Below are positions 10,411 to 11,205 of a stretch of 64,000 nt of DNA, one piece after another. The stretch's first letter is position 1; each line of letters begins with the position of its first letter. Origin of the DNA: Escherichia coli (GTDB lineage: Bacteria; Pseudomonadota; Gammaproteobacteria; Enterobacterales; Enterobacteriaceae). A program made the position numbers and the translations under genes. The DNA lies in NCBI RefSeq assembly GCF_003018255.1, contig NZ_CP027440.1; one strand, 5' to 3'. Under the pieces are notes generated by a model. It saw nothing but the letters and a program-made list of their open reading frames with translations. It was not told where the DNA came from and searched no databases.

Positions 10411-11205
10411 TTAAACAGCGGGCATATTGCGCCCGTAATAAATCTCGCGCATTTCTTTCCACAGCGCAGTGGTAATTTCCTGGCGCTCGCTGTCGGTTAA
10501 ATCTTCCGGTTTGGTGTGGAACATGTAGTGCTTAAGGTCGAACTCTTTAAGCAACATCTTGGTATGGAAGATATTTTCCTGATAGACGTTTACATCCACC
10601 ATGTCATACAGCGCCTTCATATCGTCAGACATAAAGTTCTGAATCGAATTAATCTCATGGTCGATAAAGTGCTTCATACCGTTAATGTCGCGGGTAAAAC
10701 CGCGCACGCGATAATCAATAGTCACAATATCGGACTCAAGCTGGTGGATCAGGTAATTCAGCGCCTTCAGCGGAGAAATCACGCCGCAGGTAGAGACTTC
10801 AATATCGGCGCGGAAGGTACATAAACCGCCTTCAGGATGACTTTCCGGGTAGGTATGTACGCAAATATGACTTTTATCGAGATGGGCAACGACCGTTTCT
10901 GGCAGTGGGCCGGGGTGTTCTGTTTTGTCGATAAGTTTCGGGTCGACCGGTTCTTCACTCACCAGAATAGTGACGCTGGCACCTTGTGGCTCGTAATCCT
11001 GGCGGGCGATGTTAAGAATATTGGCCCCGATAATGGAACAGGTTTCTGACAGGATTTCGGTCAGACGGTTGGCATTATAGAGTTCATCGATATAAGCAAT
11101 ATAACCGTCGCGCTCTTCGGTAGTTTTGGCGTAGCAGATATCGTAAATACAAAAACTCAGACTTTTGGTCAGATTATTAAAGCCATGCAGTTTCAGTTTT
11201 TTCAA
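10411..11205 (-). CDS. speD: S-adenosylmethionine decarboxylase proenzyme
   Basis: translation (M)[25 protein letters not shown]...; first codon reads TTG in this sequence, no in-frame ATG between speE stop and this position. Confidence 0.92.

Follow-up and report, generated by a model that had tools for sequence, protein, structure and literature searches.

S-adenosylmethionine decarboxylase (SpeD) performs the rate-limiting step in spermidine synthesis. Its gene, speD, is the second cistron of speED in Escherichia coli and is annotated with a TTG initiation codon. UUG serves as the initiation codon of ∼3% of E. coli genes, with 10–100% of the activity of AUG (bioRxiv 10.1101/063800). The described systems that most resemble this arrangement are the polyamine modulon, translationally coupled cistrons and the AUU-initiated genes infC and pcnB. 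Polyamines stimulate fMet-tRNA binding at the UUG or GUG codons of cya, spoT, cra, uvrY, frr and gshA (PMC4405209), and the Igarashi/Kashiwagi group ties a distant Shine-Dalgarno (SD) sequence to polyamine-responsive translation (PMC4405209, PMC7177335). E. coli speD likewise combines an inefficient start with a rather distant SD; however, it is in neither of the member lists given for the modulon (PMC4405209, PMC7177335), and the resemblance is at the sequence level only. As in translationally coupled cistrons, the SD of speD overlaps the stop codon of the preceding gene, leaving a gap of 15 nt, and a junction of this tight kind is found in 78 of 80 species. Here the likeness is one of gene layout only, and speD differs in that initiation has been recorded by INRI-seq on a fragment lacking speE translation. 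The genes infC and pcnB share with speD a conserved weak start, which in their case limits or regulates expression, and pcnB lies in the same stretch of DNA as the speD gene described below. AUU, however, is a non-canonical codon that is discriminated against by IF3, whereas UUG belongs to the three canonical start codons of bacteria (bioRxiv 10.1101/063800).

Here we analyze the start of speD in a window of 64,000 nucleotides of E. coli DNA (contig NZ_CP027440.1; all coordinates refer to this window unless otherwise stated). We place a probability of about 95% on the reading that speD, as second cistron of speED, initiates at the UUG at 11205–11203 using an SD that overlaps the speE stop codon, and that it thereby yields a self-cleaving proenzyme of 264 residues. 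That speD starts with TTG is already known, as it is recorded in the curated K-12 annotation. What is added here is that this TTG is unchanged across 80 species of Enterobacterales.

Sequence of the speE–speD junction

Both genes of speED are on the minus strand. The upstream cistron, speE (spermidine synthase; 11221..12087), encodes 288 amino acids from an ATG start. The speD coding sequence (S-adenosylmethionine decarboxylase proenzyme, class 1a; 10411..11205) comprises 264 codons plus TAA and was assigned from the list of open reading frames and from matches to TIGR03331 and PF02675. Upon inspection of the minus strand between 10300 and 12300, the 3′ end of speE was read as CAG CCG TCC TAA. 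This TAA (11221–11223) supplies the first three bases of the SD, TAAGGAG (11217..11223, minus strand; GGAG at 11220–11217). An A-rich spacer of 11 nt, AAGATAAGAAA (11206..11216, minus strand), separates the SD from the TTG codon (11203..11205, minus strand), after which the codons AAA AAA CTG AAA CTG CAT GGC TTT specify KKLKLHGF. A preliminary description of this DNA had put the speD start at TTG, preceded by TAAGGAG overlapping the speE stop, and had stated that no in-frame ATG separates that stop from KKLKLHGF. All of its coordinates are correct and the sequence agrees with the statement on ATG; GTG is absent from the same interval as well. It had also described speD as starting directly after the speE stop, which here stands for an intergenic gap of 15 nt.

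The TAA of speE is in frame with speD, and the five sense codons in between (GGA GAA GAT AAG AAA) were searched for ATG, GTG and TTG and contain none of them. The first internal methionine of SpeD is residue 176. The TTG at 11205–11203 is the sole canonical start able to yield complete SpeD. The call is forced because no rival canonical start precedes the conserved N-terminus, because the first internal methionine lies so far downstream and because the TIGR03331 model aligns from residue 3. Counting against the call is the SD–start spacing of E. coli speD, which at 11 nt exceeds the usual optimum. Note that the frame shared by the speE TAA and speD is seen in E. coli and E. albertii without being conserved in other genera; it is probably incidental.

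A scan of 10200–12700 for sigma-70-like promoters returned no site, and an Rfam scan of 9800–12800 (E ≤ 1) assigned no known RNA element to the speED leader or junction. One snoRNA match in the latter scan was rejected as due to chance (25.6 bits versus a gathering score of 53). Just past the speD stop there is a terminator-like hairpin (10379..10406, minus strand) whose stem has 11 base pairs, 8 of them GC.

Comparison with annotated E. coli genomes

In K-12 MG1655 the gene is b0120 (NP_414662.1; 134788..135582, minus strand). Its first codon is TTG in an identical context, CCTAAGGAGAAGATAAGAAATTGAAAAAACTG. It is the same gene with the same length of 264 codons, and the sequence is identical to that of the window from the speE stop to at least codon 20. 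The K-12 protein differs by two substitutions, A29T and A246T (262 of 264 residues identical), the window being derived from another E. coli lineage. The closest RefSeq strain, 200164, has speD annotated by PGAP from the same TTG. When complete E. coli genomes were searched with a 2-kb region spanning speED, 5,425 of the 5,426 gave a match, and identity reached 100% in strains 200164 and E04. A base-for-base alignment of the whole window to 200164 was abandoned, since two stretches of equal length gave 29,531 positional mismatches and thus differ outside speED. Because the window as a whole is not colinear with 200164 base for base, starts were compared with that strain using sequence probes rather than coordinates.

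The preliminary description had listed five further genes with GTG starts and had called for comparison with curated K-12 starts. In that comparison speD and all five agree, with each GTG present at the coordinate that had been given. The starts of acnB (7239..7241, plus strand), panC (24783..24785, minus strand), hrpB (38138..38140, plus strand) and fhuB (47336..47338, plus strand) equal both the K-12 curated start and that of RefSeq strain 200164. The start of htrE (31448..31450, minus strand) likewise agrees with that of strain 200164 and occupies the same position as in K-12, in a gene with diverged N-terminal residues. The list of non-ATG starts was accordingly right for all six genes named and had a single omission, pcnB, which encodes poly(A) polymerase I and starts with ATT (35157–35159, minus strand), the start also curated for K-12. 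Only two E. coli genes are confirmed to be AUU-initiated, and pcnB is one of them (bioRxiv 10.1101/063800). The homologous 64 kb of strain 200164 holds 52 complete coding sequences, which start with ATG (45), GTG (5), TTG (1) and ATT (1). The speD result thus re-derives the curated annotation, and serves chiefly to show that the preliminary description can be trusted in its gene calls for this window.

Some other features of the window were noted during these comparisons. For mrcB (∼40661, plus strand), K-12 has two annotated in-frame starts, at 164730 and 164865, corresponding to full-length PBP1b and to PBP-1B gamma 135 nt downstream. In the yad fimbrial operon (yadC to yadN, with htrE; ∼25800–33000, minus strand), 36-nt probes made from K-12 5′ ends found no exact match, and the N-terminus of HtrE reads VTIKSTKKYH in the window versus VTIEYTKNYH in K-12. 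This cluster is far more diverged from K-12 than are its housekeeping neighbors. Between panC and panD, strain 200164 carries a frameshifted transposase pseudogene beside a gene for an Rpn-family nuclease, and this pseudogene is unlisted in K-12.

Identity of the encoded protein

SpeD matches TIGR03331, the equivalog model for E. coli-type AdoMet decarboxylase, with 490.7 bits over residues 3–261 (cutoff 255.8), and matches PF02675 with 53.8 bits (cutoff 25). Both model matches and the processing serine, which are characteristic of class 1a SpeD, were found, as was the enterobacterial arrangement with a speE gene directly upstream. From sequence and K-12 alignment, the site of proenzyme self-cleavage that gives the pyruvoyl group is Lys111–Ser112 (AAA AGT; 10870..10875, minus strand). 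The self-processing motif, with HLDK before the cleavage point, is present, and the two residues are K111 and S112 when numbering starts from the TTG-encoded methionine. This agrees with the numbering published for the SpeD cleavage site. Mg2+-dependent AdoMet decarboxylase activity is expected from the 99% identity to the characterized K-12 enzyme. A search of the Protein Data Bank with the SpeD sequence returned no entry at E ≤ 1e-3, so that the N-terminus is not to be seen in any deposited construct. Class 1a (long-form) SpeD appears to be without a solved structure detectable by sequence.

Published initiation-site data

The speD start is among the sites mapped in vitro by INRI-seq. Retapamulin-stalled initiation complexes were detected at K-12 position 135582 (minus strand) in five of five replicates (PMC9825163, Table S2), with RPF peaks of 47.7, 45.7, 61.2, 35.0 and 37.9 (PMC9825163). 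The same study lists no alternative start site for speD (PMC9825163, Table S3). Its templates contained only 30 nt of upstream sequence and 150 nt of each open reading frame (PMC9825163). Since speE is not translated from such a template, UUG initiation in vitro is not strictly dependent on speE translation. The in vivo Ribo-RET value reported at the speD start is 0, as is that at speE (PMC9825163). Because speE is also without a peak, the missing speD peak probably reflects low expression. The supplements of TetRP and TRAINSPOTTER were searched for the N-terminus of SpeD, and speD is not in them. Literature searches likewise turned up no discussion of the start of speD.

Conservation of the TTG codon in Enterobacterales

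A scan of a genome collection provided 80 species-representative loci, ranging from Escherichia to Xenorhabdus and encoding proteins with 78–98% identity. The start position in each was anchored on the conserved HGFNNLTK motif, and the codon scored was that lying 18 nt 5′ of His7. This codon is TTG in all 80 loci, and is never ATG or GTG. It is immediately preceded by AA in 79 of them. In every locus a long speE open reading frame terminates in the interval from −14 to +105 nt relative to the TTG, and in 78 of them it does so within 50 nt. In other genera a strong SD, GGAGGTGA or GGGGGTGA, is located at −14 to −7, leaving a 6-nt spacer in most cases. Most genera also have an in-frame TGA two codons 5′ of the TTG, which excludes longer forms. 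Eight of the 80 loci have an ATG or GTG in frame two to three codons before the TTG, and there the SD abuts that codon too closely. One database entry, named for Erwinia, does start two codons upstream (MKLQKLKLHGF). Note also that the speD reading frame of Erwinia psidii is only 73 codons long, due to a frameshift or pseudogene or to an error in sequencing, and retains its TTG start.

The surrounding synonymous positions are far less stable. Third positions of codons 2–14 vary freely, with consensus frequencies of 0.54–0.85 at the majority of them and with codons 8 and 12 reaching 0.94–0.95. Of the 80 loci, only 43 have CTG as the leucine codons at positions 4 and 6, the others using CTT, CTA or CTC. 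Among degenerate codon columns of the whole of speD in which the amino acid is invariant, the third position is invariant in only 1 of 45, and the third-position difference at identical residues reaches 0.54 (Escherichia versus Photorhabdus). T, A and G would each permit a start at the first position of the initiation codon, yet T is fixed against this nearly saturated synonymous background. We therefore infer that the TTG itself is under purifying selection, and that UUG has been kept by selection rather than by inertia.

Homologs outside Enterobacterales

Outside Enterobacterales, speD homologs stand alone, with no speE upstream. Such stand-alone genes were called at TTG in Permianibacter, Marinobacterium and Neptunomonas and at GTG in Gallaecimonas. 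Metagenomes were scanned with a coding pattern for GFNNLTKSL, which recovered 101 full SpeD genes forming 41 clusters at 90% identity; the motif SH.[VI]HTYPE is present in 101 of 120 metagenomic matches. For the 32 clusters with an unambiguous start, the codon is TTG in 17, GTG in 5 and ATG in 10. ATG is found mostly in the most divergent clusters (43–55% identity to E. coli SpeD), several of which have no recognizable SD. The SpeD family is strongly enriched in TTG relative to a genomic background of ∼3–4%, and the enzyme does not require this codon.

Codons 15–19 and a predicted start-proximal hairpin

Codon entropy was profiled for 79 complete Enterobacterales speD genes, excluding the 73-codon Erwinia psidii locus. 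Codons 15–19 (AGT CTG AGT TTT TGT in the E. coli sequence described here; consensus AGC CTG AGT TTT TGT; 11149..11163, minus strand) form the most synonymously constrained five-codon window, with a mean entropy of 0.21 bits (rank 1 of 158). The next independent window has 0.69 bits. Ser17 is AGT in 79 of 79 loci, Phe18 is TTT in 99% and Cys19 is TGT in 96%. Codon bias does not explain this constraint, since the codons fixed at 96–100% (AGT, TTT and TGT) are non-preferred. An overlapping reading frame and a known RNA family were also considered as causes, and neither a convincing open reading frame nor a matching Rfam family was found.

The segment from −5 to +70 (75 nt; 11136..11210, minus strand) is predicted to fold into a weak, imperfect, A/U-rich mRNA hairpin, in which UUG pairs with the CGA of codons 21–22 and codons 15–19 pair with codons 3–9. 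For E. coli the minimum free energy is −13.7 kcal/mol (z = −2.07). For Enterobacter, Pantoea and Yersinia z is −2.8, −2.3 and −2.0, respectively; Serratia, Dickeya and Photorhabdus give weaker values. When a 121-nt region around the start was folded, its stability did not exceed that of shuffled sequences (z = −0.59), and a z of about −2 was reached only with the 75-nt segment.

Support from covariation was sought at two depths. In 46 Enterobacterales sequences 93% of cells in the hairpin are paired, and neither RNAalifold nor pair counts gave any compensatory pair. In a broader alignment of 42 family members the hairpin core is paired in 79% of cells and contains 29 double-change cells, versus 17.2 ± 5.5 in shuffles, 5 of 500 of which reach 29. 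The core scores 0.222 for covariation in that alignment, and no slid register exceeds 0.118. These values are suggestive of covariation in the core within the broader family. Genomic GC3 and phylogeny both confound the main covarying pair, which joins Lys5 (AAA/AAG) to Ser17 (AGT/AGC). A helix of +2..+10 with +48..+56 was discarded, as both RNAalifold and the minimum free energy folds give a register other than this one. Due to the lack of compensatory pairs within Enterobacterales, we treat the start-proximal hairpin as hypothetical. Its pairing with codons 3–9 is one candidate cause of the constraint on codons 15–19.

Discussion

In the mechanism that we propose, the UAAGGAG element is bound either by a 30S subunit or by a ribosome fresh from termination at the UAA of speE, 15 nt upstream of the start. 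fMet-tRNA is then placed on UUG and elongation begins as Met1-Lys-Lys-Leu-Lys-Leu-His-Gly-Phe, and the resulting proenzyme of 264 residues cleaves itself between Lys111 and Ser112. The combination of UUG with a strong SD, possibly together with the weak hairpin, would set or condition SpeD output relative to that of SpeE. Setting this ratio is the likeliest purpose of the UUG, and coupling to speE termination may contribute in vivo.

Two readings deny the TTG codon its role as start. In one, translation would begin at a non-canonical codon, whether a CTG (codon 4 or codon 6) or any of the upstream codons GGA GAA GAT AAG AAA, so that TTG would be read as leucine or left untranslated. CTG is able to initiate at 1–2% of the AUG level (bioRxiv 10.1101/063800), and the annotated speD site went undetected by Ribo-RET in vivo. 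We nevertheless judge this reading very improbable, as CTG occupies codons 4 and 6 in just over half of the Enterobacterales loci versus a TTG present in every one, the spacing of the SD fits TTG, TIGR03331 already aligns from the third residue, and INRI-seq sees the annotated site and no other. To our knowledge, moreover, none of GGA, GAA, GAT, AAG and AAA is an initiator. In the other reading, SpeD would be made wholly or partly as a SpeE–SpeD fusion through readthrough of the speE TAA, and a separate start would be unnecessary. The shared frame, with its five intervening sense codons, is what permits this idea. That relation is not conserved, however: most genera differ in frame or distance and have a TGA in frame two codons before the TTG. 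TAA is also the most efficient of the stop codons. With stand-alone speD genes lacking an upstream speE outside Enterobacterales, and with independent initiation seen by INRI-seq, a fusion is scarcely credible.

Initiation at the TTG thus being the preferred reading, it is the reason for its conservation that carries more doubt. The TTG may be the true start and have persisted by phylogenetic inertia, with ATG serving equally well. Consistent with inertia, the family elsewhere uses all three canonical codons (TTG, GTG and ATG in a ratio of 17:5:10 among the metagenomic clusters), the start codon has not been linked experimentally to regulation, speD is missing from the polyamine modulon lists, and the hairpin shows no compensatory pair within Enterobacterales. 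Against it, a first base that is free to be A, G or T has not changed in 80 species, while invariance is seen at only one of 45 comparable sites; the family uses TTG far more often than the 3–4% of the genomic background; and the bases at −1 and −2, as well as codons 15–19, are likewise frozen. We therefore regard inertia as unlikely, if still a serious contender, and prefer maintenance of the UUG by selection.

Two refinements of the proposed mechanism may be considered. A ribosome terminating at the speE stop might melt the hairpin at its base, where the UUG is held, so that coupling would be mediated by structure. Alternatively or in addition, as the two are not exclusive, initiation at the speD UUG might respond to polyamines. 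The most elaborate form of this idea would treat the invariant AAAUUG, the strong SD, the hairpin pairing with UUG and the frozen codons 15–19 as one conserved module of translational control, which would couple SpeD to SpeE, provided that terminating ribosomes open the hairpin, or respond to polyamines or Mg2+, as UUG-initiated mRNAs of the polyamine modulon reportedly do, or do both. We put this forward as a speculation and consider it rather doubtful. Were such a module to exist, the start codon would have to begin with U to form the closing U–A pair, and this requirement would account for the absence of ATG or GTG replacements of TTG in Enterobacterales. The module would then be a bacterial counterpart of the polyamine-sensing translational control of eukaryotic AdoMetDC. 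More generally, a weak start that is fixed throughout the order, together with an adjoining block of frozen synonymous codons, suggests that polyamine homeostasis in enterobacteria may be subject to a translational control that has gone unrecognized.
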